A stretch of 64,000 nucleotides of DNA from NCBI GenBank assembly GCA_000092065.1, contig CP000586.1; one strand, given 5' to 3'. This DNA is from Ostreococcus lucimarinus. Lineage: Eukaryota. Each line of letters starts with the position of its first letter. Position 1 is the stretch's first letter. Positions 29,540-63,100 of this stretch are shown here, piece after piece. The notes below the pieces were generated by a model. It was not told the origin of the DNA and made no database searches. It saw only the letters and a list, made by a program, of their open reading frames with translations. Both the position numbers and the translations under genes were made by a program.

Positions 29540-29895
29540 CGCCGCGCGACGCCGCGCCGTCTCGCGCCTTCGTCGCGACTCCGCGACGATGCTGCGCGCG
29601 GTGACGTCTCGAATCGCGCGCCGCGTCGTCGGCGCGCGCGGCGCGGCGTCGACCGCGGACGCGAGCGGGGTCTGGCGAGGGTACGACGCCGTGCCGGACA
29701 CGCCCGGTGCGTCGAGCGCGACGCGACGCGACGACGGGGCCTCGACGGGACGCGACGGAAAGCGACCGACGGGACGCGCGACGTTAAAACGACGCGATCG
29801 AACGACGCGCGCGACTGACGACCGAGAGACCCGCAGACGGATTCACCGCGCGATTCGCGGTGTCGGAGACGAACCCGAACGGCGTCGAGGTCATC

Positions 29896-34176: not shown

Positions 34177-34782
34177 ATGACTCCAACATCTCTCGACGTG
34201 CGGCTACTCGTTCGCGAGTTCAAGTCGTTGAAGCGACGCGAAGCCGACGACCTGATACGCAACCTCAAGATGGTGGGTGACGACGTAACCAAATGGACGT
34301 TTGAGCTGCATACGTTTGACACGACGTGTCCTGGTGGCAAAATGCTTATGAAGGACTTGGGAAGACTCCAGAAACGTGGTTTGGATCACATCCTCATGGA
34401 GGCGAACATGACTGCGCACGGTGGGTCTTGGCCAACCGACCCACCCCTCTTGCGCGTCGTGAAGCCTCGGATGAAGCTCTATACCGGCCACGTGACAGCG
34501 GGCGGCTCGATTTGCAGCGAAATGCTGGTAAATACTGGAGGTTCGAACGGTTGGAATCCTCGGTTGTCGATGGAAGCGATCATCGAGACAATCAAGCTGA
34601 ACATGGTGGATTGCGAAGTCGTCGAGATCGAAACTCCGTACAATGGCAGGCAGCGTGCGGGGCCGCTCCGAATAGATTTGAAGGGCGAGTATTCGTACGA
34701 CTGCATGAATGAATACTCTGAATTCGCTGCAATGGCTGCTTTTGATCGCGCAGTTGCGCACCATCGTCGTCATGGCTGGTAA
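34177..34782 (+). CDS. Ubiquitin-conjugating enzyme E2, UBE2Q-like, 201 aa
   Basis: ATG at 34177 confirmed. UBC fold with PPLLRVVKPRMKLYTGHVTAGGSICSEMLVNTGGSNGW. The active-site Cys sits in a GG.IC context as in UBE2Q. The C-terminus ends HHRRHGW like UBE2Q (HEKNGW). Confidence 0.75.
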   Translation: MTPTSLDVRLLVREFKSLKRREADDLIRNLKMVGDDVTKWTFELHTFDTTCPGGKMLMKDLGRLQKRGLDHILMEANMTAHGGSWPTDPPLLRVVKPRMKLYTGHVTAGGSICSEMLVNTGGSNGWNPRLSMEAIIETIKLNMVDCEVVEIETPYNGRQRAGPLRIDLKGEYSYDCMNEYSEFAAMAAFDRAVAHHRRHGW

Positions 34783-35534: not shown

Positions 35535-35734
35535 GCGCTCCGACTCAACCGACCCCGCGCGCGTCCACGATCGGCGCGCGTTCACGAATGATTTTTTCCT
35601 GTCGTCTCGCTCGTCTTCACGCGCGCGCGCTCGACCGCGCGCGCGTCGCGGTGTGCGTTATTGACTTCTTTTCAATCCGTAACGCCTTCGAGCGGAAGCG
35701 TCGCTCGCGCGTCACTCTCGCGCTCGACGACGCG
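35535..35734. promoter_or_regulatory. Divergent promoter region between the J-domain gene (minus, ATG 35534) and EMC4 (plus, ATG 35735)
   Basis: A 200-bp spacer between head-to-head start codons. Inferred from gene arrangement only. Confidence 0.4.
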
Positions 35735-36325
35735 ATGAACGGCGCGTACGAGGTGCGCCCGAACGCGCGCGCCGCGCGCATCGATGGCGAACGCTTGCCC
35801 GATCCTCCCGGCTACGTCCCGCGCGCGCTCGGCGCGAGCGACGGCGCGAGCGATCACGCCGCGCGCGCATCCTCCTCCTCCCGCGCGGCGTCGAGCGCGC
35901 CGACGACGACGATGGACGGCGCGGCGGTCGAGCTCGAACGAAGCAAACTCAGAGTGCGACGCGCGTACGCGTTCGCGCAGTCCAGCGTGTCGTCGATCGC
36001 GATGATGACGTTCATGATGTGGATGAGCGGCAACTCGGTGCAAGTCTTTAGCATCATGGTCGTCTTCGGCGGCGTCGCGCAGACGACGCGAGCGATCCTG
36101 AGCTCGCGAGCGACGTTCGATAGATTCGTCGATGGTGATGCGAGCGTGGACGTCACGGTGCCGAGGTTGATGTTTTGCGCGGTGCAGCTCGTGGGATTGT
36201 GCCTGGCGTTGCGCAAGCTCAACGTCATGGGTCTGTTGCCCACGCACGCGAGCGACTGGGCGAGCGGGATGAAGCCTCCGAGAGCGTTGGAGCGCGCGTT
36301 CGGCGACGTCGAGCTCGACCTTTAA
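35735..36325 (+). CDS. EMC4: ER membrane protein complex subunit 4 (EMC4), 196 aa
   Basis: FMMWMSGNSVQVFSIMVV, then LALRKLNVMGLLPTHASDW matching EMC4 (MGLLPTHASDW). The upstream ATG at 35588 precedes an unrelated leader. ATG 35735 gives a protein of the expected size. Confidence 0.8.
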   Translation: MNGAYEVRPNARAARIDGERLPDPPGYVPRALGASDGASDHAARASSSSRAASSAPTTTMDGAAVELERSKLRVRRAYAFAQSSVSSIAMMTFMMWMSGNSVQVFSIMVVFGGVAQTTRAILSSRATFDRFVDGDASVDVTVPRLMFCAVQLVGLCLALRKLNVMGLLPTHASDWASGMKPPRALERAFGDVELDL

Positions 36326-38599: not shown

Positions 38600-40282
38600 C
38601 TACAGGGGACGGAACAAGCCAGCGAATGGCATGTCGGCCATCAACATCGCGTTTCTTTCCGAGAGAATTCCGTCGATTTCGTTGCGCAGGAGGTGGTCTT
38701 TTGCATTCTCCGCAGCTTTGTCATGTTGGCGCTGAAGGTACTTCATGACGCCGATGAACACACCTTCGCTCAAAGATGTTTTGTGCTCTTCGACGATTTC
38801 GTACAGAGCGTTAATGTGTTTTTTGTCTTCGTTTGCGACGGTATCAAGAGTTTCAAAGTAAATGATGAACTTCTCAACCTCGGTAAATGCGTTCTCTTCG
38901 TCGTTCTCAAGCATCTCCATAATCATTTCACCGTTGTCAACGGCTTCGATTAATTGTTCCTTCATCAAGCGAACAATGTCTGGATACTCTTTATAACCAT
39001 GCTCGACGACGTACTTGAGCATGTCCAGATTCAAATGATCTATGCAGCGATAGACGGTTTCCGGATAACCGGCGGGGGCGGCGGGGGTGAAAAACAAAAG
39101 ACCCCAATCCTCGTGGAGGGGTTGCACGAAAAGTGATTCAGGCAAGTCAAGCTCGAGCGAGAGCTCGACTGCAGTGCTCATTACTGCAGTTCTCATCTTT
39201 GGATCCGGGTGGTTAAGTCCCAGCCTGTCTCTATGAAGATGAAGATAGCGAAACATGAACCATCTTTCGAGGATGTCGCGATCGAGATCATCGTAACTTT
39301 GTTTGTTAATGTAGATTGAATCGTGCAGTGCGCGCATCGATTCAAACAAATGAAACAGAAAGGCGTCACCATGAGTCGCCACTGGAGAGTCGACTCGTCC
39401 CCAATGCGTTCGTTCGCGCAACCAATCCAGAAATTTGATGCGCGGGTCTATCTTCATAAGTTGTGCAAACTTCTCCGCGAGATACGTCGGACTTCCTTCG
39501 AGTTTTAGAGCCCCTTCGAAAACAATGTTTCGTCGTTTGTTCATCGCTTGCATATTTGGTCGTGTGAGCACCATCATGAACAAAAGTTCCGCGTCGGCCC
39601 GCCGATATTGAGGTGCATGGTTCACAAGTTCATCATACAACACCTTGAACAACTCGAACCTATCGTACCAATACGCGAGCCAACACGCCTCGAGGCGCGT
39701 TACGTAACCAGGTGCAAAACTCTTAAGTCCATGTTCTTTGATGGATGCTTCCAACCAAACAGGACGCCGCATATCTGCCTTGTTCTCGCCAACCCATGCC
39801 ACTATTTTTCTCATCGTTTCATCGTCGACGTGACGTTTCTCATACATCAATCGCCGCAACGCACTAGCCCACATCTCTCGTTTCGTTAGCAACGGTTTGC
39901 CCTTCAACTTACGCTTCACACATGACGCGCACTCCGCGACCAGCGCCGCCGCGAGCGTCTTACATTTCGTCTTGCCCAACTTATCCGCGCCTTCCTTTGT
40001 CAGCCGCGTGCACGGCGGCCGCTGCTCCGTCGACGACGACGCTCCAGTCTGCTTTACACCCTTGGACGCAGACGTCGACGCTTTAGTCGTCTTCGCCGCG
40101 TCTTCACCTCGTCGTGCGTTCGATTTCTTCGGCGGCGGCACATTTAAGATCGGATCGTGGTCTACGCTGAGCCCGTTGAGTCCTCTTCGCGCCATCAAGG
40201 CTTGGATGACACGAAGCGTGCACTCCCTGCAGTCGCACATCGGCTGATACATGCCCTCGCCCGCGCCAGGTCGTCCGGACAT
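38600..40282 (-). CDS. Unknown-family protein B, tandem paralog of A: basic N-terminus, Cys motifs (MCDCRECTL; CKTLAAALVAECASCVKRK), large helical domain, 560 aa
   Basis: The track ORF 38600..40693 starts at GTG and would overlap the Piezo stop. In-frame ATGs at 40282, 40252 and 40240 were confirmed. C-terminal similarity to A (VMKYLQRQHDK vs IMQFLKRLHDE; INALYEIVEEHKTSL vs LHVILQLFEAHKETF). Confidence 0.6.
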   Translation of the reverse strand: MSGRPGAGEGMYQPMCDCRECTLRVIQALMARRGLNGLSVDHDPILNVPPPKKSNARRGEDAAKTTKASTSASKGVKQTGASSSTEQRPPCTRLTKEGADKLGKTKCKTLAAALVAECASCVKRKLKGKPLLTKREMWASALRRLMYEKRHVDDETMRKIVAWVGENKADMRRPVWLEASIKEHGLKSFAPGYVTRLEACWLAYWYDRFELFKVLYDELVNHAPQYRRADAELLFMMVLTRPNMQAMNKRRNIVFEGALKLEGSPTYLAEKFAQLMKIDPRIKFLDWLRERTHWGRVDSPVATHGDAFLFHLFESMRALHDSIYINKQSYDDLDRDILERWFMFRYLHLHRDRLGLNHPDPKMRTAVMSTAVELSLELDLPESLFVQPLHEDWGLLFFTPAAPAGYPETVYRCIDHLNLDMLKYVVEHGYKEYPDIVRLMKEQLIEAVDNGEMIMEMLENDEENAFTEVEKFIIYFETLDTVANEDKKHINALYEIVEEHKTSLSEGVFIGVMKYLQRQHDKAAENAKDHLLRNEIDGILSERNAMLMADMPFAGLFRPL

Positions 40283-40533
40283 CGACCTTGTTCGTTGCCA
40301 CGAGCCACGGCGCGCGAGGCGCGAGACGCGAGGCGCGACGTGACGGGGGGGTGCACGAGCGTTTCTGAGGAGTTGGCGACGAGACTGGACGGCGTCGCCG
40401 CGGCGCGGCGACCTTTCGTGCGTCGTGCGATCGGTAGATTGGTGTTGGCTAATGAAATAATCTATATTTACATGTGCTACAGTGCTACAGGGTGATGACG
40501 AAGATCCGTCGAACGCGCACGCAGGGCGCGCGC

Positions 40534-43500
40534 TCAAGACGTCTTCGGACGCAGGGGCATCGCGCTGCCATCCGACGTTCGAGTAAACTCGAACAGCACG
40601 GCTGGAGAACGGTAGATACGGATGAGAAGCCAATAAAGACGCTCCTCGAGAACAAAATCTCTCACTTGACGCGCGCTGTAAATATCGCTGCACAGCGAGA
40701 TGAGACGGTGCGTTGATGGCAAATCGACGTGCTGGATGCTGCCGACGAGATTGTTGGTGAAGCCTCGAACGATGGACGCCAAAGTTAAGATGTAGACGAC
40801 GTACACGCCCGTCAGACCACCAACAAATTGACTGAACGTCGCAAAAACGCCGGTCGGTACTTCGGATGAGATCAACACGATCTCAGGACCGTTCTCAAAC
40901 GCACTGCAGGGTCGCCACCAATCCAAACTCTGTCGATTCTCTTCCGAGGCTGCGAGGGGAACGACGTATGTTCCGCAATCGACGGACCACCACGGTGAGG
41001 TCGTGTTGTACCCATTCAGGGCAAGCGTGCAACTTATACTTTGTTGACTCGAATAATTCGGCACGGGCGAACCTTTGCCGTGCAAGTGCCAAACTCGCGG
41101 GTAAATGTTTTCCAAGAAGACATTGTTTTGTTCGCCGTTGAGCACTCTGATAAGCGCGGCGGCTTCGTCTTCTGCAAAGGTGTAGTCGACGCCTTCTGAA
41201 TATAAAATAGGATTATCCAGCGGTAAATGACGTTTAAACATCCAACCCGTGGTTAGTTTTGCACCACTTGAGAGAGACTTCTTCAAAGCCTCGATAGAAG
41301 GTGGAGGGGGCGACCAGACGGTGTCGCTGTCTTTCGCCAAACACGCCTCCTGTATTTGTCCAGGCTTGTTTATCATTGGTATCGGTCCATCCGTGCGAAG
41401 AGTCGACCACGGCATCGTTTCAATCGTTTTTCTGAATCCGCCTTCAAAGATTGGATACTTGAAGGTGTTTTCTGCTCCAATCAAGCTCATGTTGAACCGA
41501 ATATCGTAGACTGGATTGATGTCGACTTGTGGGTTTGATGTGCTGAATACGAAGAACGGCACGACCAACAGACTGAAAATGATCGTAAAAAGACCACCAC
41601 CCTCGAGGAAAACTTTTTTCCACCATGGTTGGGGTTGACCGAACGGATGATACTTTCTATAAGTGTTATTCCGGACGTTGATTCTGAACAAGTCACGCGA
41701 GATGTTCTCAAGCTTCAACCAGTCGTAAAGATCCAGGGCGCTGTCCGTGCAAGCATATTCGAGCAACACGCGTAATTCGTACATGAACGGAATCGAAAAG
41801 TACGCCATGAAAGCTCCAAAAGAAATAATATCAGAACGCTGGAAGATCAAGCTGTTCGTGAATACTTCAGCTGGGAACCCACAGCGTATTTGTCGCGCTC
41901 CGAGAGTGAACGACAACGACTTAAGGAGGAAAAAGAATTGCAAATACGAGTGACGTGCCGTCGTGTTCTGGTGGAAAATCATCAACAAAAATCCAACAAA
42001 TCCAGCATACGTCAAGTAGTGGTAGAAAACTTTGGCAATCTTTGCTTTTTTCATGTAAATCACTCCATCAACGACGATGAGTACCAAGCAAATGAAGACG
42101 GATACGACGTAGTCAATTTTGAACAAACCTTGATAGTATGTCTCCACCAATGCCTCTGCATCTGAGTCCACCGTGTTTTGATAGCAAATCGCCACGAAGA
42201 ATGTTGCGAGGATGTCGAAACAAAGCGTCGCGGTGTAAAAGTCCTGACCTTCTTGGTGGAAACCACGAACAGACGTGAGGCCAAGCGGGGCTACATCTGA
42301 GCCGCCAGCAGCTTCTCTGAGTTGCATCGCCTCAAGCGCTTTACTCGCCTCCGCACTAGGACGAAGGACGGAAACTGGGGCTATAACGCGGAATATTGCG
42401 GCACGATGTCCCGGGCTCGTTCGTAGACTATCGGTGTCTACTTGCACAAACTCGAGCGTGTAGTACGAAAGCGGTAGTTTTGAGCCACCTTCAGAAATCG
42501 TCTGGTGATTAATGAGTGCGTCGTTCACTCGGGCGACAATTTCATCCCAATCTGGCTCTGCATCTTCCTGTGCGAGGACTGAAAGCGCTACGAATGACGG
42601 ACCATACTCAGCTTCCGGAGTTAAGATTCGTTGGAAGAAATTATCCATTTCTGCTAGCAATCCTCGAGAGACTTCGATGTGGAAAGGTGAAGACTCAGAA
42701 TCGTCTTGGCGCGCGAAATTCATTTCAAATTCCGCAAAATGGACATTTTTAAACCTGGAAAACAGGGCGTTCGCGGCGAACAAGTCGCCGTTATTGCCCT
42801 CGTCACGCTCTTCGCGACGATGAATTTCATCTCTTGGTGTTTGCTGAGCGCTGTGGTGCACCGTGATGGCGATGTATGCCATGAACGCACCAATCATGGA
42901 AGGGACAAACGCACTACTGGCATCCTGGATACCGAACACGACTCCCGTATGAGCGCAGGCGGTCATACCCGAGCATTGCAAAGAACAAGGAATAGTAACA
43001 ACGTACGCAACGGCGAGCGATAATTCGGCGTACAAGAGAATCAATCGCCAAAATCCGGCAGGCACCACTGGATACGTCATCAGTCCGTATGCGATGATTG
43101 ACGTGGGAAAGACGAGAGCAGCGATGGAGAAATCGATGGCAAAAGCCAGTATCATGAAAAAATAGCACATTGAATACCGGGGTGCTGTCAACCACGGCCA
43201 TGCTTTCAAAAAGGCGCCAAATAATAAGCCAATTGTGGAGCTGCGATCACCAAGCCAGGTATGAAGTAAGGCTGTCAAATCCTTCTTCGGGTCATCCACA
43301 CTCGTGCGCATCTTCAGCTCGTGATCACGGAGTTGCGCTGCTCGCAAGTCCTGCCTTTCGGCGTTGTCTTCGTCTTCTCTGATCCATTCTTCATTGTTCT
43401 CATCGTCATCGCTGTCTCTGACGCCACGCCGACGGCGGATTGTATCACTTGGTGGCTTGCGGTCGCCCGTCGGTTTGCGACGAGTGCCTCGACTTTCCAC

Positions 43501-46500
43501 AGCGAGAATCTCTCGAGACAGACTTGTGATTTCGTTCCTGATGTCCTCTACTCTTTGACGACGATTTTCTTTCTCGCTCACCTTGGTCAAACAAGTTGCC
43601 AAACTTTCATGAATCCATCCCCGCTTCAACGCATCGTCGACAATGCGCTCCGCTTCAATGGACTGGCGACGCATAATCATCGCGGCTTTGTATGTGGGCT
43701 GAGTGATGATGCTTCTCAACAAGTGAACGATGGCAAAAATGACCAAATCCGGTGAAAGTTGACCAGACTGCCATCCGAGCACCGTGGGAAGCTTGTAAAA
43801 TCCAAAGCCTTGAAGTAGCGAACATTCAGACTCAACAGATACGTACCAGTCACCTAGTAAGCCTTCAAGCGGAGCTTGGTAAAGGAGAATCGCGCCGATG
43901 ACGGATACGTTGTACAGTTGCAAAATTCTCAAGCCCATCAGACTGTCCATACTCAAAGAATCGCGCGTACGGAGAAAATAGAATGGCAAAATCAAATAGC
44001 CAACGTGCATGAGATCTCGCGAAAAAGTGCCAAAGAAAATCACCATGACCAATGCCCAGTCAACTGCGTATCGCAAGTAAAAGTATCGCATCCATTCAAG
44101 GATGGTCCAATTTGTACTTGCTTCCCAGGTAAGCGGTGCGAATAAGATGTCAAAGTACGACGTCTCCTGCGTTTCCGGCGGGAGCAAAGCAACTTGTGTC
44201 GGTGTTTGCCTCGGTACCATCGTGGCGATCAACTCTGAAATCATAGCTTCATCTAACTCCGCGCCTTCTGCTTGCGTCGCCTCTATCGTCATTCGCGCGC
44301 GCTCTTCCAGAGCTGCTAAAATGGCATCCATCCTCAGTTGGCAAGCGGCGATAAAGAAAGCGCTAAAATAGCCAAACAGCATCATTTTGCTGCATGGGTA
44401 AACGGCAAGCCACTGTCTAGTCTCTCGTGAAAGCCGCATTTGTTCGCTCGCAGTGGAGAGGAGTGCCCGTGCAAACGACGGCGATGGTGGAGGAGACGGC
44501 GGAACGTCATCCACGCGGTTTTGCACGATATCAATCGAGACAACGTACTGCCATAGGACTATCAAGGCGCAGATCGCCGTAGTAAAGCGCCATAAGAGCA
44601 AGCGGTCACGCGGCGTGGACCCAAGCTTACTGTTAATCAACTTGAAAGTTACCCCTAAGTAGACGAGAGACAGCATGTTTGTAGACGCGATTCCGACAAT
44701 CGCAAAGACTACGTACAACAAACCTGGCATGAGATTCGCCATCATGCCTTCAATCATTTCAGGAACGATGGAAAGGAGCATAATCATCTGTCCCAGATTC
44801 GTTTGTGCATTTTCTCTCACTCGCTTAGTGAATTCGCGACGTGCCTCATCGCTCGCCGCACTTTCGCCTTCATCCGCGATGTCGGACGTGCTCTCCGAGA
44901 TTTCAGACATTGCTTTGTCATCTAAGTCGTCCATTTCCTTGCTTGCATCGGTGTTTTCCGTTTTTCGTTGAACAAGCATCGCTCGTGCGTCGCGTTGCGG
45001 CCAGAAGAGGTGACAAGGTTCAGGAGAACATCCAGATTTCAACGCCGGTGGTAGTTTCCTCAACCAGAAGCGTGTCGCCTTGGTCAACTCAACGGAAAGT
45101 ATCACCAGCACCGGATAGCGAAGCATGGATTCATTCTCTGGTATGAAATCACTCGGCGATTCTGGCCACTTATGCGCACCCAAGAGAGTCAAAATACCCC
45201 AATGTTGTCCCGCTTGAGTGTATTGAATCTTATAGGCGTAATCGATGATGGCAGAAATGAGTGCAACTGTACCAACCAGTTCGGTGGGACCATCGCTCGT
45301 TTTCATCGACAACGTCGCTGCGATGAGTGCTGCGAGCATCAATAATCCGAGCAAATCTCGGCGCTCGAGACTAAACAAGATTGCACAGAGGGTAACGATT
45401 TTATTTGTGTGCAAAATGATGGCTCGCTTCACAAGTGGCAGAAAGCCAAGCTCGGTTGCGGCCAACGGCAGACTTCGTCTCGCATCCACTGCATTGCTCA
45501 TCGTGAGCAATCCAATCTCGTGGAAATATGTTACGACGAGGAGAGTGCTCGGTCCGATCAATTCAGCCATGAGCTTGCCTGGCTCGACATTTTGCGCCAA
45601 CCCTACCGCGTTTGAGAGGAACGCCTTGAACTCGGTGGAGAATCCAAAAATTTCGTCGAGCGGGAAAGCGCCAAAGGCGTAACGACTCGCGAGATTGAAT
45701 AAACAGAACAACAGAACAGCGCGCCATCGACCGGACTCGGTTTCTTCTGAGTGCCGTTTAGCGATGCAATTCAATCCAAGGAGTACGAGAAGTGTCAAGT
45801 TTATCAGCGAACACTGCGACGTTTCGAGCGTCACCAGACCAACCAAGAGCACTAAATAAGCGCCAAAGCGCGTCATCAACTTCATGAGCACCAACGAGCA
45901 CTCGTACACTACGGCTTTACCCAAAGACACCAATGAGTTCAAGGTTCCCTGGCCAGGCGCACTATCTTCCTCAGTTTCCGGCGTCAGCGCGTTAAGGACC
46001 TTCTGCAGGTACAGCACGATGCAAATTACCACCAAAACGCAGGCGAAAGGTCCAGTCGTGTGAATCATGTTTGATTGCTCAAGGCCTAAAACACGCAATG
46101 TCGTCGCCCACTTCGTGTGGTACACATTGAATATATTAACGTGTTCATTCATCGCCCACAGATACAACGCCGCAACAAAGCCAGCGAGTGTTTGTGCCGT
46201 CAGATGCAATACCGTCCGGTCTCCCGGTTTGAGGATATTGAACAAGAATGCCAATAGCAATGCGGCGTGGAGTAAATCGGCTCGCGATAGAGCCACAATC
46301 CACAGTGCGAAGGGCACCAAGAGGTGTGAGATCAACTGAACTAAAGGCAAATCCCACATCAAGCGACTGTCGTCGACGGCCGGGTTATGCTCAATCTCAA
46401 GGTCATCTAATGGTACAAAATCCACAATGACACCATCCTGCACTCTTTGTTCCAGAACGTCATCCGTCGGGGTACTCTTGGCGTTCTTTGTGAGCCAACC

Positions 46501-47652
46501 GACAAAGGTGAGCGTGGCTACTAAACTGCCCATATAACACGCGTTAATGCCCGATTGCTCGCCGTTGTGCGCTGGCGATGCACCGAATATTTGTAGCAAA
46601 ACTCTTACTTTGCCGTTCATGGATGACATCATCACTGGTGGAATGCAAAGCAGGGCGTACTCTCCAACGCTCCAAAGCGCGACGTAGGCGAAAATCACCG
46701 GACCGTGCACGTTCGCAAACGTCGTGTGACGCGTTGGGTTCACGACGAGAATCAATCCTAGCAAAAGCATGGGGTACGCAATTACGTTAACGACGAGTAA
46801 TGACGTCGCGAGTAACGTAAAGCCAGCCAAGACGCCGCCAAATCGAGCCAGCAAGCGGGCGACTGTTCCCGCGTCATCGTAGGTGTCCACGACGTCTGCA
46901 TCTGAAGCTGACTCCCCCTCCATCAAAGGCGCTCTAATACCTTCACCGTCTGCGGTATCGTAATCGCTGTCGTGTGACTCCACCGCACACAGCGCCATGA
47001 ATAGCCCGCCGATAGCGATGATTTGCGTCAAACGCAACAATCGCGCCACCGGCCCTTCCGTCCTATCCATCGAATACAACCCAAGCAACTGCGCCGAAGA
47101 CTCTCGCGCCGCGTCTTGCAACTCCGGTAACTGATACATGTAAATTGCCATGAAATGAATCGCGGTGTAGCACAAGCACGCCACCGTGGCCCTTCGCGGA
47201 AGATTTAATAAACTCTCGCGCGCACCTTGAAATTTGCCACCGACGCCGCGCCGCATCTCAGTTGCGAAATACGACACCACGAATAATAAATACATCATCG
47301 ACGACAGTGAAGGCACTGTCACCGCCGCTAACGCCGCCGTACACACCGTCACGCGCATCACCGTCTCCTTATCGCTCACTGTCGTCGCAAACGCCCCTTC
47401 CGCGTCGCCGCCGTCGAGCGCGCTCGCGCGCTCGCTCGCCCCATCCACGTACAGCTTACTTCCTCCCGCGAGCGCGATCCCGAAATAAGGCACAAAGAAC
47501 AGCACGTAGTCTATGATGCCATCCAATCTTCCGAACCCTAAATACCGCAGCGCGTCCGCTTGCCATGGATTCCTCGGCCACGCCGCTCCGAAACCGACGT
47601 AACACGCCTGCGTCGCGCAATTCCCCAACAGCACGAACGCACACAGCCCCAT
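40534..47652 (-). CDS. PIEZO: Piezo-type mechanosensitive ion channel homolog, 2372 aa from the first ATG
   Basis: Dozens of predicted transmembrane helices. The C-terminal region is collinear with the human Piezo1 pore/cap module (PFMYELRVLLEYACTDSALDLYDWLKLENI vs PFLFELRAVMDWVWTDTTLSL; C-terminus ..VRGFTNNLVGSIQHVDLPSTHRLISLCSDIYSARQVRDFVLEERLYWLLIRIYRSPAVLFEFTR vs [65 protein letters not shown]). The track start 47742 is TTG. The first ATG is at 47652. Confidence 0.85.
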   Translation of the reverse strand: MGLCAFVLLGNCATQACYVGFGAAWPRNPWQADALRYLGFGRLDGIIDYVLFFVPYFGIALAGGSKLYVDGASERASALDGGDAEGAFATTVSDKETVMRVTVCTAALAAVTVPSLSSMMYLLFVVSYFATEMRRGVGGKFQGARESLLNLPRRATVACLCYTAIHFMAIYMYQLPELQDAARESSAQLLGLYSMDRTEGPVARLLRLTQIIAIGGLFMALCAVESHDSDYDTADGEGIRAPLMEGESASDADVVDTYDDAGTVARLLARFGGVLAGFTLLATSLLVVNVIAYPMLLLGLILVVNPTRHTTFANVHGPVIFAYVALWSVGEYALLCIPPVMMSSMNGKVRVLLQIFGASPAHNGEQSGINACYMGSLVATLTFVGWLTKNAKSTPTDDVLEQRVQDGVIVDFVPLDDLEIEHNPAVDDSRLMWDLPLVQLISHLLVPFALWIVALSRADLLHAALLLAFLFNILKPGDRTVLHLTAQTLAGFVAALYLWAMNEHVNIFNVYHTKWATTLRVLGLEQSNMIHTTGPFACVLVVICIVLYLQKVLNALTPETEEDSAPGQGTLNSLVSLGKAVVYECSLVLMKLMTRFGAYLVLLVGLVTLETSQCSLINLTLLVLLGLNCIAKRHSEETESGRWRAVLLFCLFNLASRYAFGAFPLDEIFGFSTEFKAFLSNAVGLAQNVEPGKLMAELIGPSTLLVVTYFHEIGLLTMSNAVDARRSLPLAATELGFLPLVKRAIILHTNKIVTLCAILFSLERRDLLGLLMLAALIAATLSMKTSDGPTELVGTVALISAIIDYAYKIQYTQAGQHWGILTLLGAHKWPESPSDFIPENESMLRYPVLVILSVELTKATRFWLRKLPPALKSGCSPEPCHLFWPQRDARAMLVQRKTENTDASKEMDDLDDKAMSEISESTSDIADEGESAASDEARREFTKRVRENAQTNLGQMIMLLSIVPEMIEGMMANLMPGLLYVVFAIVGIASTNMLSLVYLGVTFKLINSKLGSTPRDRLLLWRFTTAICALIVLWQYVVSIDIVQNRVDDVPPSPPPSPSFARALLSTASEQMRLSRETRQWLAVYPCSKMMLFGYFSAFFIAACQLRMDAILAALEERARMTIEATQAEGAELDEAMISELIATMVPRQTPTQVALLPPETQETSYFDILFAPLTWEASTNWTILEWMRYFYLRYAVDWALVMVIFFGTFSRDLMHVGYLILPFYFLRTRDSLSMDSLMGLRILQLYNVSVIGAILLYQAPLEGLLGDWYVSVESECSLLQGFGFYKLPTVLGWQSGQLSPDLVIFAIVHLLRSIITQPTYKAAMIMRRQSIEAERIVDDALKRGWIHESLATCLTKVSEKENRRQRVEDIRNEITSLSREILAVESRGTRRKPTGDRKPPSDTIRRRRGVRDSDDDENNEEWIREDEDNAERQDLRAAQLRDHELKMRTSVDDPKKDLTALLHTWLGDRSSTIGLLFGAFLKAWPWLTAPRYSMCYFFMILAFAIDFSIAALVFPTSIIAYGLMTYPVVPAGFWRLILLYAELSLAVAYVVTIPCSLQCSGMTACAHTGVVFGIQDASSAFVPSMIGAFMAYIAITVHHSAQQTPRDEIHRREERDEGNNGDLFAANALFSRFKNVHFAEFEMNFARQDDSESSPFHIEVSRGLLAEMDNFFQRILTPEAEYGPSFVALSVLAQEDAEPDWDEIVARVNDALINHQTISEGGSKLPLSYYTLEFVQVDTDSLRTSPGHRAAIFRVIAPVSVLRPSAEASKALEAMQLREAAGGSDVAPLGLTSVRGFHQEGQDFYTATLCFDILATFFVAICYQNTVDSDAEALVETYYQGLFKIDYVVSVFICLVLIVVDGVIYMKKAKIAKVFYHYLTYAGFVGFLLMIFHQNTTARHSYLQFFFLLKSLSFTLGARQIRCGFPAEVFTNSLIFQRSDIISFGAFMAYFSIPFMYELRVLLEYACTDSALDLYDWLKLENISRDLFRINVRNNTYRKYHPFGQPQPWWKKVFLEGGGLFTIIFSLLVVPFFVFSTSNPQVDINPVYDIRFNMSLIGAENTFKYPIFEGGFRKTIETMPWSTLRTDGPIPMINKPGQIQEACLAKDSDTVWSPPPPSIEALKKSLSSGAKLTTGWMFKRHLPLDNPILYSEGVDYTFAEDEAAALIRVLNGEQNNVFLENIYPRVWHLHGKGSPVPNYSSQQSISCTLALNGYNTTSPWWSVDCGTYVVPLAASEENRQSLDWWRPCSAFENGPEIVLISSEVPTGVFATFSQFVGGLTGVYVVYILTLASIVRGFTNNLVGSIQHVDLPSTHRLISLCSDIYSARQVRDFVLEERLYWLLIRIYRSPAVLFEFTRTSDGSAMPLRPKTS

Positions 47653-47862
47653 CACCCCCCACCACACGTCTCTCTGCACCCGCGTCAGCGCGTGCGTATT
47701 CTTTCGTCCCTCGTGCACGCGTTCGATCGCGAACGCCGTCAAGAATCCAAAACTCTGTAATCGACATGGTGTTCACGATGATGGATTCGTCAGTCCGTCG
47801 TTTCGTCCGGTTTTCTCTCTCGCGCGCGCGTCGATTCGCGTCGGCGCGTCCACGCGCGCACC

Positions 47863-49329
47863 ATGATCGACGGTCGCTGTTCCGCGGCGTGTATGCTCAC
47901 GGCGACGACGAGCATGACGCTCGACATCGCCGCCATCGGGTCGACGCCCATGGCGCGTTGTGACGCGCTCGGCGCACACGCGCGCGCGCTCGACGGACAC
48001 GCGCCGTTCGCGCGCGGCGAAGCGGTCGACGCGAGGCGCGCGCCGATGCGCGCGTCGGCGTCGGCGGCGACGGCGGCGACGGCGCCGCGCGCGACCGCGA
48101 GGCGCGCGCGAATCGCGAACGCAAAGGCGCGCGGGACGACGACGACGACGCGCGCGTGCGTGAACTCGCCCGAGGGCGTGTTGGCGGCGCTGGTGTGCGT
48201 GGGGACGTGCGCGGGAGTGTTGGAGAAGCGCACGCGCGTCGGGGCGCGCGTGTCGGGGCCGGTGCTGGCGATGGCGAGCGCGAGCGCGCTGGCGAGCGCG
48301 AACGCGCTGCCGGGCGCGAGCGCGGCGTACGAGGCGGTGTGGACGACCGTCATGCCGAGTGGGGTGGTCTTAGCGTTGTTAGCGAGTGGGAAGGCGCTCG
48401 TGGGGAAGGGATGGACGGGGGCGGGTGAGGACGTGGCGAAGGCGTTCGTCGTCGGCGCGTGCGGCACCGTCGTCGGCACCGCGGCGGCGTTCGCGGCGTG
48501 CGGACGCGCACTCGGTACGCACGGAGCGAAGATCGCGGGGTGTTTGTGCGCGAGCTACATCGGTGGCAGCTTGAATTTTGCGGCGACGGCGCAGGCGTTG
48601 GACGTGGTGAACGCGGGAGGGAAGGCACTGTTGACTGGCGCGATGGCGGCGGACAATCTCGCGATGTGCGCGTATCTTGCGGCGCTCTTCGCAATTAAGA
48701 CTTCGGGGCCGAGTGAGGAAGAAAGATCGAGGGAGGTTGAGAGCGGCGAACGAGTTTTGAGTGGTGTCACGGCGGCGTCCGCATGCGCATCGCTCGCGAT
48801 GGCGTTGATTGTTTTGGAATTGTCGCGTCTCGTCGCCGCCGGATTCGGCGCGCCCAGTTTATCGCTGGGCGTCGCGTGCGTTTTGGCGCCCATCGTCTCG
48901 ATTTCGGCGAGCACGATCGCTCGGACGTCAAAATCTGAATCAAGGAATTTATCCAGTATTTTGGCGTTTTCTGGATCGCAACCGATGAGCGAGGCGCTCA
49001 TGCTCTTGTTTTTCGCTACGCTCGGCGCCATGGTGGATTTGCGCACAATTTTTGCGACGCTCTCGGGCGGCGCTATGTTGCCATTCATCGCGATTCTTCT
49101 CACAACACAACTTGTGTTCACTCTGCTTGTCGGTCACAAGTTATTGAAGATCCCATTGTGGGCCGTGCTCGTCGCGGCGAACGCGAATGTGGGCGGACCA
49201 GCGACCGCCGCAGCGATGGCCGCAGCGCGCGGATGGCGTCAAGCCTTTGCACCGGCGGTGGCCACGGGGATATTCGGTTATTCGATCGCGACTTTGATCG
49301 GCGTCGCGATAGGAATTTTTTTAGCGTAG
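47863..49329 (+). CDS. Polytopic membrane protein with a transit-peptide-like N-terminus (possibly DUF819/YjcL-like), 488 aa
   Basis: ATG at 47863 confirmed. After ~110 aa of Ala/Arg/Thr-rich leader there are about 10 hydrophobic helices. The DUF819 assignment is from memory and is tentative. Confidence 0.55.
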   Translation: MIDGRCSAACMLTATTSMTLDIAAIGSTPMARCDALGAHARALDGHAPFARGEAVDARRAPMRASASAATAATAPRATARRARIANAKARGTTTTTRACVNSPEGVLAALVCVGTCAGVLEKRTRVGARVSGPVLAMASASALASANALPGASAAYEAVWTTVMPSGVVLALLASGKALVGKGWTGAGEDVAKAFVVGACGTVVGTAAAFAACGRALGTHGAKIAGCLCASYIGGSLNFAATAQALDVVNAGGKALLTGAMAADNLAMCAYLAALFAIKTSGPSEEERSREVESGERVLSGVTAASACASLAMALIVLELSRLVAAGFGAPSLSLGVACVLAPIVSISASTIARTSKSESRNLSSILAFSGSQPMSEALMLLFFATLGAMVDLRTIFATLSGGAMLPFIAILLTTQLVFTLLVGHKLLKIPLWAVLVAANANVGGPATAAAMAAARGWRQAFAPAVATGIFGYSIATLIGVAIGIFLA

Positions 49330-49401: not shown

Positions 49402-52400
49402 TTACGCCGTCAGCGCGGCGCGCTCCGCCTCGACTGCGGCATTACTCTCTTGCTGTTGAAGCTGCGCGAGTTGGTTGGCGCCAACCTTGAATGCGCCCGG
49501 ATTGATCGCCACTGTCTTCGTGGTGTTGTTGGTCTTGTAAATACCGACCAATCTATCCGCGAGCTCGAACATGTTATTGCGCAGAGAAATGATCACAAAC
49601 TGAGCGTTTTTCGTTCGCTCCTTGATGTAATGTCCGACGATGGAAACGTTCTTGAAATCCAACGCAGCGTCAATTTCGTCCATGACATACAACGGTGTGG
49701 GCTTGTAGTGATGCAAAGCAAACACCAATGCGAGCGATGAGAGCGTCTTCTCACCACCGGATAAATTGGCGATGTTCTTCCAGCTCTTCTTCGGCGGGCG
49801 CACGCTGAAAACAATGCCCTCGGAGAAGGGATCGAGCGAATCTACCAGCTCAAGTTCGGCATCACCACCGAGAGTGATCATTTGATACATCTCTTTGAGT
49901 TTGAGCGAGATAATATTGAAACCATCCATGAACTCGTTGAGTCGTTTTTGTCGTAGCTTGTCGTACGCTTCACGAGTGTTATCACGCTCCTCCGTCGCCG
50001 CGCTCAACTCAGCGGCGCGCTCTTCGTACTCCTCCGCTTTCTTCGCGTACGCTTCGATAGATGACATGTCAGGCTTTGCAGCCGCGAGTTCTTCTTCTAA
50101 AATCACCGCCTTTTCTTGCATCTCGTCCGTCGTATGTTGCTCGAGCTCTTCGTCGTTCAAGAGTTCAGGCACTTCACCCTCCGCGTAAAGCGACGTGCGC
50201 TCCTTCGTCACCTTGTTGATTTCTTTATTCCAGTGCTTTTCCTTGTCTTTATTCTCCTTCTGGACGACGCTGAGGTCGTCTAATTTCGCTTGAATATCAA
50301 CTTCAACGCCTCGGATGGTGCCGACAATTTTCATTATTTCATCGAACGCTTTCTGTGCCTCGGAGAACTCGCCACTCTTCACTTCAAGGAGCTGCTTAAG
50401 TTCGCCTTGCGATTCGAGTACGGCGGCGGCGCCGTCTTCAAGTGCCTTGAATTCAGCCTCGTGATTCTGCATATTAGCCTTAATTTGCTCAACTTCGGCT
50501 TGATTGGCTTCGATTCCCTTGGAGAGACGAGCGGTCGTCCCTTCGTGAGACTTGGCCTTGGCGCGCTTCTCGGTGACGGCGTCAGACGCTGCAGCGATGC
50601 CGGCGGTGAGATCCTTGACTAACGCTCGCTGCCTTTTCAAGCCATCACCGCCAACGTTATCCATCTTTTGTTGCAACTTGGCTTCCTTCTGTTTAAGAGC
50701 GGCTGCACCCGCCGTGACTTCATCCAACACAACCTTGGCCTTTTCAACTTCTTTGTCGAGTCTCTTGAGCTCGTCCGCGTCGTTCTTACTCGCGTCATGC
50801 GCCGCTTCGAGTTCAACCAAACGAGTGGACAAATCAGCAGCCTTGGCTTCGGCTGCGTCAAATTCAGCCTTCAACTTGGGAATCATGCGTTCGATTTTGT
50901 TGACGATCGCCTCTGCATCGCGAGCCTCCTGGAGAGATTTGAGCGCCACCTGACGCGAGCGTTCGTAGAGTTTTCCAGCTTGTTCAAGCTCCACCTCTGC
51001 CATTTTAATCTCTTTCGCCACTTCGGCGGCATCGGTAATCACTGGTGCTTGATTTCCAACGCGCATTCTACCGGTACGCGGCTTGGAACCGCCACCACTC
51101 AACGTACCGCTGGTCTCAAACAGTTGACCCTGAATGGTAACCACTCGACGGCGCTTCTCGCCGTGAGCCAGGCGCGAAGCTTGTTCGAGATCTTGAGCCA
51201 CTAAAGTATCACGAACTCCGAAGTAGAAAGCGACCGCAAAGCGTTCTTCCGCGGGTTTGATCAAATCGATCAGGCGCGGCGCGTTGTCCGGGTTGGAAAC
51301 CTTTTCGTTCATCTTAGAAAGAAGATGCTTCTGTCTGTCGAGGGCAAGAAAGTTGCCCCGACCGAGGTTGTGCTTCCGAAGGTACGACACACAAAGCTGC
51401 GCATCGGACGTGGTTTCAACCAAGATGTGATCAAGAGGTCCACATGCAGTCGACACCGCGACATCATATTCTTTGTCAATAGCCCCAAGATCACCGAGAC
51501 GACCGAGAACACCCTTGAGCGCGCCAGCGGCTTGAGCGTCAAGCAACGCTTGCACCATCGCATTCTGACTCTTCTCCGTCTCGGCCGTCGAACGACGTTG
51601 TTCGAGCTTACCACGAATCTCACGAGTCTCAGCTTGCGCAGCGGCTTCTTTTTCTTTCGCATCGGCTTCCATTACTCGAGCCTTATCGGCGCGCGCGCGC
51701 TCTGTCTCCAACGTCGCTTCCTCTTCGCCGATGGTTTTCTTCAACTCGATAGCCTTCACGCGTGCCTCCTTTTGACCCTCACGTGCCGCGTTCAAAGACT
51801 TTTCTGCATCAGCGTGTTTTTCAAGGAGAAGGGCTCGCTCAGACGTAGCGACGTTGAACGCCCCCTGAGCCGCGGCGAGCTTACCTTCCCACGGCGCCAA
51901 ATCCTTTTGCGCTTGGTCGAGTTCGCGGCCCACCGCTGCGAACTCATCTTGCAAGCTAGCGACGAGAGCATCCAAAGCAGCCTCTTCTTTGTCGATTCTT
52001 GCCTCGAGATCTGCCTTTTTTGCTTCCAAAACGGGCACTTCTTTCTCAATCGCCGCGCATTCCGCCGCCATTTTCTGCTGCTTTTCCGTGTCCGTGGCAA
52101 TTTTCGTGTTGAGTTTCTTCACCGACGCCTTCATGTTTTTCAACTCCTCTCGATACTTGGCATCCTTCAGCTCGAAGTCGGCAAAGTCTTTCACACTCTT
52201 GTCGAAATCAGCTTGAATCTTGGACAATTCGTCAGCAATTTCGCCCTTACGGCCCTCTGCAGCCTTCAACGCGTCCTCGTGCTCGGAGTGTTTCGCGCGC
52301 TCTTCTTCGAGCTTTTGCGTGAGCGCATCCTTGTTTTCTTGAATCTTGACCAAGTTGGTTTGCGTCTCTTTGATGAATAGTTGGTACATCGTCGATCGCG

Positions 52401-53384
52401 TAGACAAGAGCTCTTTTTCTTTCTCTAAGAACGCCTCCGCCTCCGCCTTGACGATGGCGAGCGCATCCTTCTCACCCTCGACTAACTTCAATCGGTTTAC
52501 CATGACATCGCGCTGCTCGTTCAACTCCTCCAACTTCTTGCTCGCCTCTTCGATGGGCTCGACGTATTGCAAAGTACCGATGATGTCTTCCAAGTATTCC
52601 AATAAGCCTTCATCGCCCGGCGCCGCCCCTTTCGGCTTCATCATGGAAATTTGTTCAACTTCCCCTTGCAAGATGAGGAAACGGTTGTTGTTTAAATCCA
52701 CATCCTTCGACTTTAACAACTTTGTCACCTCTGTGAACGAGCTCGTCTTATCGTTCACGAAGTATTTGCTCGAGTTATTCCTGTACGCCTCGCGAGAGAT
52801 GACGAAATCCGAGTTCGGCACGATATCGTATCCTTCTTCGTCGTCCACGTGATCGATGATTTCGTGAAAGTGCACCTCCACACGCGCGTGCTCCAAATTT
52901 CTGAAATCTGTAGAGTTGTGAATCAACTCGCTCACCTTATTCAATCGCAACTGTTTCGCTCGTTTACCGAACACAAACATCATCGCGTCGATCACGTTCG
53001 ACTTCCCGCTCCCATTCGGGCCGACGACGGATGAAAAACTCTGCTCGAGCGAGTCGCGCGCGGCGCGTCAGTCCCCCGTCGTCGCGACGCGCGAACCAGT
53101 CAAATCGAACTCGAGCGCGTCGACATCCGCGCCCTCGCGCGCGTCCGAGCGCGCACCTTATGAAACGGTCCCACGTGTTGCGCCCCCGCGTAGGATTTAA
53201 AATTCTCCAGCACCATCTTCTTGATCGCCAATCGCGGTTTCCGCGCTCGTCGCTTCGCGTCCTCGTCGTCCTCGCGATGTCGTTCCCGTTCGTCCGTCTC
53301 CGTCGCCGTCGCGTCCTCGCGCGCGCGCGCGTCGCTCGCGGGCGCGTCATCGTCGCATTCGCGCGCGCCGTCTTCCGCCGTCAT
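49402..53384 (-). CDS. SMC4: Structural maintenance of chromosomes protein 4 (condensin SMC4); join(49402..53040,53157..53384) on the minus strand, ~1288 aa
   Basis: Exon 2 is collinear with SMC4 (VVGPNGSGKSNVIDAMMFVFGKRAKQLRLNKVSELIHNS.., long coiled coils, hinge, C-terminal LSGGEKTLSSLALVFALHHYKPTPLYVMDEIDAALD). The track ORF starts at an internal GTG (Val). The conserved N-terminal strand KMVLENFKSYAGAQHVGPFHK lies in a separate upstream ORF (53100..54173) and ends AAG|GTGCGC at 53157. The acceptor ..GAGCAG| at 53041 gives ..PFHK|SFSSVVGPNGSGKS, restoring the canonical Walker A context. The start ATG is at 53384 (MTAEDGARECDDD.., an acidic leader). Confidence 0.8.
53041..53156 (-). other. 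Predicted 116-nt intron of SMC4 (GTGCGC...CAG), phase 0, immediately before the P-loop
   Basis: The donor GT (53156/53155) follows the K codon 53159-53157. The acceptor AG is at 53042/53041. Exon 2 then begins at 53040 with AGT (Ser). All positions were checked base by base. Confidence 0.7.
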
Positions 53385-60162: not shown

Positions 60163-63100
60163 CTAATTTTTCTCTTCGTCTCCTTCCCCAAAGTCGTCTT
60201 CAAGCTTCTTCCTTGGGCTCGTTTTCTCTGTCTCGCCTCTCTGCGCCAAGAACCGCGCGCGCGGCGACACCGCGGTGGGATCGCTCGGTGAAGGTTCTCT
60301 CTTCCCAGTAGGCGATCGAATCGGTGAAGCTTTCTTCGTTTTACTGATGAGCTCGGCGTGCATGGCATCGACGGTATCGAATACGCGCACTGGCTTAGGC
60401 TTTGGACTGAGCTTTTTCTTCAGCACCTTTTGCTCCTCGCGCGCCTTTTCAAGACGAAGTTTCAAAGCATCTGCGGCTTCTTCTGCCTTGATCGAATCGC
60501 GCACGTTATCGAAAATGGTCAAGAAATCGCTCACAACTCGAAGGATGTGAGTGGGATTATCTGGCTTGTACGGCTCGCCGTAAAATTCAGTCACCCGCTT
60601 CGCCGACTCGACTGCGCCGAGCGACAGTTCAGAAGCTTCCTTGAGTTTCTCATCCATGGTCTCCGCGAACGGTGCCATCTTCGCATGAAACGCTTTATGA
60701 ACCTCTTCGCCGAGAACACCCGCGGCATGTAGTATTTCATCCTTGACTTTTGTCAAACCGTCTTGTAACTTACCCAAATTCGCGGATGTCGTTTCGATTG
60801 AAAGCGCCGCCGCCTTCTTGACGACGGCGAGATCGGTGGAAAGATTACCGATTCCAGGCTCTGTCTTTACCAGTTCTTTGTAAACAAAGTGCAACAAAGA
60901 TGTCTTTCTATCCACAGCTTTGAAATCTTTCAGCCGAAGGAGCATGTCGAGTCTAAAACCAGACGCAGATCCACGGTACGAGCCAGTGTTCAAATGATTG
61001 CCGACAACTAAAACACCCCTCAAGACTTTTACGAAAAGAGTGCTTTCTCGCAAGCAATCCGACGCTTCGGAAAGTAATCTGTACTCACTAGTCACCTTCA
61101 ACAACGCGTCTGACGCGAGCGATTTGTACAGCAGAGAGTTTACCCGACCTTCGAGTCGTGGGATTTGCATGACGTGCATGAAATATTGCTCGACCGTCGC
61201 CAACTCTTCCTTTGCGCCCTTGTAATCCATTATGAGTGTGATCTCTTTTGACGTCGGCACGGTCGAAGATATGACTTCAAGTTGCTCAGACTGCAAAACT
61301 TCGTCATCCATGGCGAGTAAAGCATCCTTAATCCGATCGAAAGGCATTCTCAAACCAGCGAGCTGAATGCTGATGTTGAGTGAGCGCTTTTGATCAATCA
61401 AAGTGACGCTCTTCTGCTTCTTCGCCGCCGCCTTGGCCTTAGCTTTCGCTTCTTCGATAGCAAATAACTGATCGAGGCTTTCAAGATTCAATGACAATTC
61501 GTCCTTGTTGGCATTCTCCCACACAGTGCCTCCGATGGCGCCTCCTTGAAGTTTCTCCCAGTGTAACATTTTCACCTTCTTGCGAGCCTTTTGAGCCCAC
61601 GCGTGCGCGTTTGCGATGGCAGCAATGCCCATCTTTGGCGGTACTGGTGGTGCTGCAGGAACACTGGATTTGAAACCTGGAGGAGGTGGAGGAGGCGGAG
61701 GCGCGGGTGCGCTTACACTCGAAGATTTGAACCCAGGAGGAGCCGGTGGCGGCGGAGGCGCAGGAGGCGCGACGCCTGTCGCACGTTTGAAACCAGGAGG
61801 CGCTGGCGGAGGTGGAGGTGCCGGTGGAACTGTCGCTTTTGAAACTGACGATTTGAAGCCAGGTGGAGGTGGTGGGGGTGGCGGAGGCGGTGCGACTTTC
61901 CCAGAAGCCTTCGGTGGAGGAGGAGGAGGAGGAGGAGGAGGAGGAGGAGGAGGAGGAGGAGCCACCAACGGCGATGTCTTTGATGAAGGAGCAGGAGGAG
62001 CAGGAGGAGCAGGAGGAGCGTCTAGCGCTTTAAGAACAACTGCTTTGGCTCCTCTTCCTAAGTGATCAAGATCCAACTTTGCCTTTGTCTCTGACAGCTT
62101 TGATGGCGGTGGCGGCGGCGGCGGCGGCGGCGCGTCAGAAGCTTGCTCTTGAAGAGACTCCATTTGCGCGGCAAAACCGCTGACCGGACTAACATCGCCA
62201 AGCAATGCTTTTGCAAGCTTACTATCAGCTTTCAAGACAGTCCCTGGATCCACTTCGTCCGCGATTTCTATGTCCTTCATCAATTTGATGAGCTCTTGCG
62301 TAAAGTTATTCCGCGACGCAACCTCTTCCAGTCCGCGAATTTGATTCAATTTCTTCGTCTTGACTAATGTGGCAAACTTCAGAAGTGTCTCTATTTCTTC
62401 ATTAACCGACACGGAACCCTCTGTGCTCTCATCACGCGCATCGGACTTTCCGGTGACTTGCACCAAATTATTCAGCGCTTCGCGCAGCGCACCGTCATTA
62501 TACAACGCAAGCAGATACGCCTCCTGCTCAGGCGTCAAGTCTACTCTCGGTACCGCCACTGGTGTTGCTATTGGTAAATTGACGGTAACTAGCGGAGAAT
62601 CGCCGCCAGAAAAACCGTCACCGCCAGAAAAACCGTCACCGCCAGAAAAACCGTCACCGTGCGCGACTTGCACCACCTCTTGAGGCGTGAACGCCGCATG
62701 TTCTTGCTCCGATTCCTCATCAAAATAAGCATCATCGTCGTTCTCGCTCAAGTAGTCATCTTGTCCGTACTCATCGTCGACGTAGTCGTCATCATCGCGA
62801 TATTTGTCTCCGAGGAGCGCCTGATGACTTAATTGAGCCGAGGTGCTTTCGGCGAGCCTCGTCCGAATTTTTTGCAGCGTTGAAGAAGATGCTGGCGAGC
62901 GAGCCTTACCCCCAGCTTTAAGAGTGGAGTGTATGAGAGGAATGACATCGTGAATTTGATCGTTCGCCACATGCACTGCAGAAGCGAGTACGGTAGGTAC
63001 ATCCGCTCGCGACGCTGTGCGCCTGTGAACGCGCCCACGTATCGCGCCACGCTCACCCCTGCTCGCCGCTGGTTTCCTTCTAATAATCACTGGCACTTCA

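Follow-up and report, generated by a model that had tools for sequence, protein, structure and literature searches.

The window, a 64,000-nt stretch of DNA, carries on its minus strand an uninterrupted open reading frame (ORF, 40534..47742) of 2402 codons when counted from the first alternative start, a TTG, and the in-frame stop upstream of it is a TGA at 47775..47773. The first in-frame ATG, at 47652, lies 90 nt inside this ORF and opens a protein of 2372 aa, as the original prediction had stated and our ORF scan confirmed. All 2372 residues are identical to those of XP_001418409.1 (UniRef A4RYK8), a 'predicted protein' of Ostreococcus lucimarinus CCE9901, so the expected picoeukaryote host was correct. 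Zhang et al. 2019 (PMC6395819) included the same accession in their phylogeny as the Piezo of Ostreococcus lucimarinus, and Fang et al. 2021 (PMC7796506) listed it as 'OlPiezo', the name used here, in their alignment of the beam, inner helix, and C-terminal domain (CTD). Because the accession was used in these two papers, the Piezo identity of the gene is already known, contrary to the novelty that the original prediction implied, and the new point is the missing 5′ exon in the public gene model. The remark that Piezos of unicellular algae are little studied does hold, since the literature we searched contained neither a functional study of algal Piezos nor an electrophysiological recording from any of them. 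OlPiezo was a single copy in the searches run here, and no second Piezo copy was seen. The window protein had no exact match in the contig index, and orthologues were used instead. The GC content of the window (50-70%) and its very tight gene spacing fit a chromosome segment of O. lucimarinus, and no Rfam or tRNA features were found in its 64,000 nt.

The membership of OlPiezo in the Piezo family is well supported by several independent lines of evidence. Three Piezo domains of Pfam were matched above their curated cut-offs, namely THU_Piezo1 (PF23188, 3.5e-8, aa 1495-1581), Piezo_THU9_anchor (PF24874, 1e-49, aa 1803-2037), and Piezo_cap (PF12166, 1.4e-60, aa 2090-2359), the last being the hit anticipated from a profile search for the Piezo channel domain; the last two together mark the pore module. 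PF24871 was not detected in the Pfam search. On the minus strand these matches place THU8 at 42910..43170, THU9 and the anchor at 41542..42246, and the cap, inner pore helix, and CTD at 40576..41385. The anchor match extends to the start of the outer pore helix, which follows it at ~41539..41625, and the inner pore helix was located at ~40741..40815 by alignment to mouse Piezo1. When all PDB chains were searched with phmmer, only Piezo1 and Piezo2 were found, and the best match (2.9e-40) aligned aa 1854-2361 with mouse Piezo1 2026-2546. A profile built from ten Mamiellophyceae orthologues matched the Piezo1/2 structures at 3.1e-56 with a continuous alignment of ~560 C-terminal residues, so that the predicted C-terminal similarity to Piezo1 was not only reproduced by alignment tools but proved stronger than stated. 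The same profile matched THU7 (aa ~1192-1259 against mouse Piezo1 1150-1221) and THU8 (aa 1500-1565 against the 6bpz_A stretch equated with mouse 1684-1746, the residues to which the PF23188 region also aligns). From these two matches, OlPiezo is colinear with mouse Piezo1 and has a similar amount of sequence upstream of THU7.

The predicted structures agree with this assignment. In the AlphaFold2 model of the last 1200 aa (mean pLDDT 60), three four-helix units (THU7, THU8, and THU9), a beam helix, the anchor, the outer helix, a beta-rich cap, the inner helix, and a helical CTD can be recognized. Foldseek gave this model no significant matches in the PDB other than 18 Piezo1, Piezo2, or PEZO-1 chains (E as low as 5e-23) and the isolated C. 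elegans cap domain, whose crystal structures 4pke and 4pkx gave TM-scores of 0.61-0.67. The predicted beam helix, ~68 residues long and cytosolic, lies between THU7 and THU8 (43495..43698, minus strand; model residues 147-214), is bracketed by the profile matches to these two units, and thus sits where a Piezo beam is expected. The first 1195 aa were modelled as all-helical (pLDDT 59), and the significant Foldseek matches of this model were again only Piezo structures (6e-11 to 1e-3), although a sequence search with the N-terminal 1200 aa detected hardly any relatives outside Mamiellophyceae (45 matches). A Piezo has a blade of nine four-helix units, that is, 36 transmembrane helices (TM), and 38 TM in total; about 36-38 hydrophobic segments were counted by eye in a Kyte-Doolittle scan of OlPiezo, which is compatible with this plan, but the helix count is approximate because the structure models are moderately confident (mean pLDDT 59-60). 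The colinearity with mouse Piezo1 from THU7 to the C-terminus and the Piezo-like folds predicted for both halves support the original description of a full-length homologue.

Mouse and human PIEZO1/PIEZO2 (5z10, 6b3r, 6bpz, 6kg7, 9vee) were the top matches to OlPiezo in both sequence and fold, and they resemble it in length and in the order of THU7, beam, THU8, THU9, anchor, outer helix, cap, inner helix, and CTD. However, the identity in the structural alignments is only ~16%, the N-terminal blade of OlPiezo has no detectable sequence similarity to theirs, and OlPiezo has an additional predicted alpha/beta module in the THU8-THU9 loop. The genes also differ, as animal Piezo genes have about 50 exons whereas the OlPiezo gene has one intron (described below). 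Among land plants, OlPiezo is 24% identical to a Piezo of Victoria cruziana over 40% of its length (E 4e-62), and it falls in the same green-lineage clade as the homologues AtPiezo/ESC1 and PpPIEZO1/2, in line with two published trees that group it with plant Piezos (PMC6395819, PMC7796506). OlPiezo lacks PF25288, the Pfam PIEZO domain specific to plants.

The additional module in the THU8-THU9 loop (42256..42597, minus strand; AlphaFold2 residues 514-627) is predicted to be cytosolic with a beta-alpha-beta-beta-alpha-beta order, at a pLDDT of about 56-80. Animal Piezos have a short or disordered linker at this place, and the module is absent from a nematode Piezo. It is conserved in Mamiellophyceae, with 32 invariant columns over model residues 495-640, and it has no Pfam match. 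A plant Piezo has, at the corresponding position, a loop segment equal in length, but homology between the two has no statistical support, because BLASTP was not significant (E 11) and hhalign was weak (E 0.01, probability 4%). We tentatively suggest, as a somewhat doubtful reading, that a folded ferredoxin-like module occurs in this loop in green-lineage Piezos, that is, in Mamiellophyceae and possibly in land plants. If so, it would give the blade, near the pore, a lineage-specific handle for regulation or ligand binding.

The original prediction described the gene as a single, intronless 7.1-kb exon but allowed for a true N-terminus in a 5′ exon, and comparative genomics supported the latter. 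For this comparison, the orthologous loci of six further Ostreococcus lineages were taken from metagenome contigs and the DNA upstream of Piezo was aligned (seven lineages in total). In the proposed structure, all on the minus strand, exon 1 (47862..47951) has 30 codons and encodes MGVDPMAAMSSVMLVVAVSIHAAEQRPSIM (MGVDP...EQRPSIM), which is absent from XP_001418409.1. It is followed by a phase 0 intron of 107 nt (47755..47861) with the donor GTGCGCG (47861..47855), an exact branch motif GACTGACG (47795..47788), and a CAG acceptor of the YAG type (47757..47755). Exon 2 (40534..47754) has 2406 codons and a stop, begins with SFGFLTAFAIERV, and encodes the rest of the blade, the beam, anchor, pore helices, cap, and CTD. 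The peptide across the junction reads ...EQRPSIM|SFGFLTAFAIER, and the corrected product has 2436 aa, so that 64 has to be added to the annotated numbering. The intron has the donor, branch, and YAG signals of a canonical non-chromosome-2 Ostreococcus spliceosomal intron; the published O. lucimarinus consensus is GTGCGTG for the 5′ splice site and GACTGACG for the branch point (Irimia & Roy 2008, PMC2483917). In the window, GACTGACG begins 39 nt upstream of the 3′ splice site (the distance refers to the CTGAC core). Taken alone, this motif shows no enrichment in the window (6 observed vs 4.3 expected), and only the combination of donor and branch is informative, with 4 occurrences of the donor together with GACTGAC vs 1.6 expected.

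These features recur in the other Ostreococcus lineages. The ATG of exon 1 is found at the same aligned position in all seven, conservation begins at this ATG with none upstream of it, and no stop interrupts the exon over its 90 nt (93 nt in one of the seven). In every lineage it encodes M-x4-5, a hydrophobic helix, and then AAEQRPS(I/V/A)(M/L). The donor GT(G/A)CG(C/T) is likewise common to 7/7 lineages, as is a CTRAY motif (mostly GACTGAC or GACTAAC) 21-42 nt before the YAG acceptor. In contrast to the exons, the intron is weakly conserved, its length (88-122 nt) falls in all three classes modulo 3, and reading through it meets at least one in-frame stop in each of the seven lineages. Exon 2 then opens in phase 0 with SF(G/L)F(L/V) throughout. 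The conservation of exon 1 is not neutral carry-over, since synonymous sites are saturated among these lineages (pS 0.74-0.79). Serine codons in exon 1 switch between TCG and AGC, a change that is synonymous only on the Piezo strand, and the first codon of exon 2 switches between AGT/AGC and TCG, again synonymous only on that strand. A start at the out-of-frame ATG at 47767, or a frameshift, was considered and rejected, because this codon is intronic, four lineages lack it, and in two it is out of frame. A more distant relative among the Mamiellophyceae, P0058, differs from OlPiezo in having no intron at the junction position; its continuous genomic ORF, adjoining SMC, reads ...LSSLALFVAATFQAVSQRPSLLSACFLALFGAER... 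through the junction and aligns without a gap across exon 1 and exon 2 (BLASTP 2e-24).

The annotated start codon (47650..47652, minus strand), Met1 of XP_001418409.1, corresponds to Met65 of the corrected protein. Instead of Met, this site holds L, V, or I in the orthologues; the preceding 34 codons include no ATG in any lineage, yet their translation (SFGFLTAFAIERVH...RDVWWGV) is conserved. A hydropathy plot places a TM1 peak at aa 5-23 and the annotated Met within a hydrophobic segment at aa 60-81, corresponding to TM2. The annotated start is thus probably internal and not conserved, and the public 2372-aa model, beginning there, would lack TM1 and half of TM2. Judged by genome comparison, the corrected 5′ end appears comparatively well supported.

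The gene upstream of Piezo bears on this conclusion. It is a divergent DUF819 gene, which appears in the window as an over-long plus-strand ORF (47863..49329); orthologue alignment places its true start at ~48046, where it begins with the transit-peptide-like MRASASAATAA. The synteny SMC-DUF819-Piezo is kept in all Ostreococcus lineages sampled, and two more distant loci (L011 and L012) keep SMC, while the DUF819 gene was not called there. An exactly conserved 16-mer, CATCGTGAACACCATG, lies in intron 1 at 47765..47780. It may lie in an overlapping, bidirectional promoter common to Piezo and the DUF819 gene, a possibility that we regard as speculative. As an alternative to the two-exon gene, the public single-exon model could be correct, with translation initiating at the 47652 ATG or at some non-AUG codon of the ORF, and the upstream peptide would then be a small ORF, an upstream ORF, or an antisense image of DUF819. 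The antisense frame of exon 1 is indeed open in 7/7 lineages and is part of the DUF819 ORF in the window, and the spliced 2436-aa product was absent from a collection of 15 billion proteins in an exact look-up, although other collections may still have this model. In addition, a word-indexed search with the spliced N-terminus retrieved two fragments only, neither of which extends across the junction. However, the DUF819 coding sequence cannot account for the conservation of exon 1, because it starts at ~48046, and contig coordinates suggest that the ORF called in other lineages stops roughly 170-450 nt short of exon 1. The serine codon switch also argues against coding on the opposite strand, where it would be a radical D-to-L change, and an antisense DUF819 origin of the conservation was rejected on these two grounds. 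The substituted Met within a predicted TM helix, the ATG-free but conserved codons before it, the splice signals that fit the species consensus in all seven lineages, and the continuity of P0058 across the junction are further evidence against the single-exon model, which we consider very improbable.

In every sampled Ostreococcus lineage, purifying selection on Piezo is strong. The nine orthologues are 64-72% identical to OlPiezo over the full length, with pN of 0.17-0.23 and pS of 0.74-0.79, a saturation of synonymous sites that makes a proper dN/dS not computable. These sequences from other Ostreococcus clades and Mamiellophyceae (P0002-P0010, P0058) come from loci with the same synteny, and the Ostreococcus clades have the two-exon structure and the splice signals in common with OlPiezo. 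One of the orthologues, P0010, has 3057 aa with long low-complexity inserts.

We compared the residues of the pore module with those of mouse Piezo1 (OlPiezo residues in the annotated numbering). E1959, R1961, and R2296 correspond to E2133, R2135, and R2482, the importance of which was described in mouse Piezo1 (PMC4445471), and L2289 corresponds to L2475; all four are conserved. Other positions are substituted, with T2290 in place of V2476, S2293 in place of K2479, and Q2307/H2308 in place of M2493/F2494, which form the cytosolic constriction. V2309/D2310 align with E2495/E2496, and most sequences retain the second of these acidic residues. The motif PF(X2)E(X6)W was called absolutely conserved in Piezos (Prole & Taylor 2013, PMC3681921), but OlPiezo does not match it: its version, PFMYELRVLLEY (41755..41790, minus strand, within the THU9/anchor region), keeps P, F, and E and has Y in place of W (mouse W2140). 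All ten Mamiellophyceae sequences have this Y, as does a Phytophthora Piezo, whereas the plant and nematode sequences keep W. Since tyrosine is a conservative aromatic change, we take the substitution to mean that the motif is relaxed to W/Y, rather than that the protein has lost its function or falls outside the family.

By analogy with animal Piezo1/2, OlPiezo may function as a trimeric, tension-gated cation channel. Three subunits would assemble into a curved, propeller-like trimer whose blades would be flattened by membrane tension, and the blade movement would be transmitted through the beam and anchor to open a central cation pore. This pore would be lined by the inner helices and would pass Ca2+ and monovalent cations. 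In a wall-less cell of ~1 micrometre, OlPiezo would most plausibly report osmotic or mechanical stress of the membrane.

Two alternatives concern this mechanism rather than the gene. OlPiezo could be a Piezo-derived but non-conducting protein with a structural or curvature-shaping role in the membrane, for which one can cite the change of W to Y in the motif and of M/F to Q/H at the constriction, together with the report that W2140A inactivates mouse Piezo1 (PMC4445471). The conservative nature of the aromatic replacement and its presence in an oomycete Piezo weaken this argument, as do the retained glutamate and arginines that are important for conduction or gating. Moreover, no part of the protein is better conserved across Mamiellophyceae than the pore module, which has long runs of invariant columns, and we therefore regard a non-conducting OlPiezo as unlikely. 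The membrane in which the channel would reside is less certain. It could be a genuine Piezo of the vacuole or another internal membrane, where it would shape an organelle or release stored Ca2+ instead of sensing plasma-membrane tension. OlPiezo belongs to the green lineage, and the moss homologues PpPIEZO1/2 are located in the tonoplast and control vacuole shape according to Radin et al. 2021, as cited in PMC8538497; for this reason, a role at the plasma membrane is not assured, and we give the endomembrane location appreciable weight as the lesser of the two options. The exit motif of the inner helix (I-P/Q-Y/H-x-D/E-L-P) points the same way, being similar to that of a plant Piezo and nearer to plant and oomycete than to animal sequences, and so does the loop segment of equal length and position in the plant protein. 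On the other hand, no targeting signal was found in OlPiezo here, the plant homology of the loop module is statistically unsupported, and Ostreococcus is wall-less, so that its plasma membrane is directly under osmotic stress. Taken together, we put the probability at roughly 80% that the locus is OlPiezo of O. lucimarinus CCE9901 with two exons, a 2436-aa product, the Piezo architecture, and a channel mechanism as in animals.

The practical value of this analysis is the corrected gene model. Cloning or synthesis from the public 2372-aa model would yield a protein that lacks TM1 and starts inside TM2; in such a truncated protein the first helical unit could adopt a faulty topology, and folding or trafficking might suffer as well. 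The truncated OlPiezo sequence also underlies the published alignments and trees. Ostreococcus is genetically tractable, and the 2436-aa product would be a compact, nearly intron-free Piezo of a wall-less alga, encoded by a single copy in the searches run. OlPiezo could therefore help to address the roles of Piezos outside animals and land plants.

The gene encoding a DUF819 protein lies upstream of the Piezo gene and diverges from it, and its ORF (window 47863..49329, + strand, 488 aa) overlaps Piezo exon 1 in antisense. The Pfam domain in this ORF begins only at aa 108, and this position together with the alignment of orthologs indicates that the ORF is over-extended and that the real start is at ~48046, from which the N-terminus reads MRASASAATAA... 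and resembles a transit peptide. The part of the ORF that overlaps exon 1 is its spurious 5' portion, and the start codons of Piezo and DUF819 would lie head to head, ~95 nt apart.

Within the Piezo intron, we noticed a 16-mer, CATCGTGAACACCATG (window 47765..47780, - strand), which is matched exactly in three of the seven Ostreococcus lineages, namely in the window and in the Piezo introns of two metagenome loci, L001 and L004, despite saturated synonymous sites among the lineages. The motif is uncommon across the window, where one exact copy and two copies with 3 mismatches were found. The 16-mer falls on one or the other side of the branch motif depending on the lineage. It might be part of the divergent DUF819 gene, in its promoter or 5' UTR. 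In L004, the ATG of the 16-mer is followed directly by GTGAGT, and from this sequence an alternative first exon of a single codon (ATG|GTGAGT) is possible.

Three further elements in the window, 116-182 nt long, carry the Ostreococcus intron signature GTGCG(C/T)...GACTGAC...YAG (29707..29836, + strand; 53041..53156, - strand; 24087..24268, - strand), and two of them are visibly near a start codon or ORF ends: the element at 29707 starts directly past an ORF that ends at 29701, and the junction at 24268 reads ATGGCCGA|GTGCGT. These elements are likely 5'-proximal introns of genes nearby. The structure of the Piezo gene differs in the more distant Mamiellophyceae (loci L011 and L012). The Piezo gene of L012 (P0058, L012 3001..4608) has no intron at the position of the Ostreococcus Piezo intron. 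Because its ORF ends after 535 aa and is followed by another one, the gene probably has an intron or a frameshift elsewhere. The Piezo protein of L011, P0010, has 3057 aa with long inserts rich in Gly and Ala.

The order SMC-DUF819-Piezo recurs among the Ostreococcus lineages, as do the downstream UQ_con and EMC4 genes, while no DUF819 gene was called between SMC and Piezo in L011 and L012. In the window, the SMC protein gene (49402..52995, - strand) and an FH2 formin gene (60163..63993, - strand) lie on one side, and the EMC4 gene (35588..36325, + strand) and a UQ_con-like ORF (34177..34782, + strand), a weak match below the Pfam cut-off, on the other. A gene for a conserved protein of ~650 aa without a Pfam domain (38600..40693, - strand), whose ORF has a GTG start and shares 160 nt with the 3' end of Piezo, was seen in only some Ostreococcus lineages, for example L004 and L008. 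No tRNA or Rfam features were found in the window.

In the protein, the THU8-THU9 loop contains a putative cytosolic module (window 42256..42597, - strand; about aa 1750-1863 in the corrected numbering) that is well conserved across Mamiellophyceae, has no match in Pfam and is predicted to adopt a beta-alpha-beta-beta-alpha-beta, ferredoxin-like fold. One plant Piezo has a segment of equal length at the same place, with no significant homology to the algal module (BLASTP E 11; hhalign E 0.01). The nematode Piezo used for comparison lacks the module. Absolute conservation has been reported for the 'PFEW' motif of Piezo (window 41755..41790, - strand); in every Mamiellophyceae sequence examined, its W is replaced by Y, a substitution also seen in one Phytophthora Piezo.
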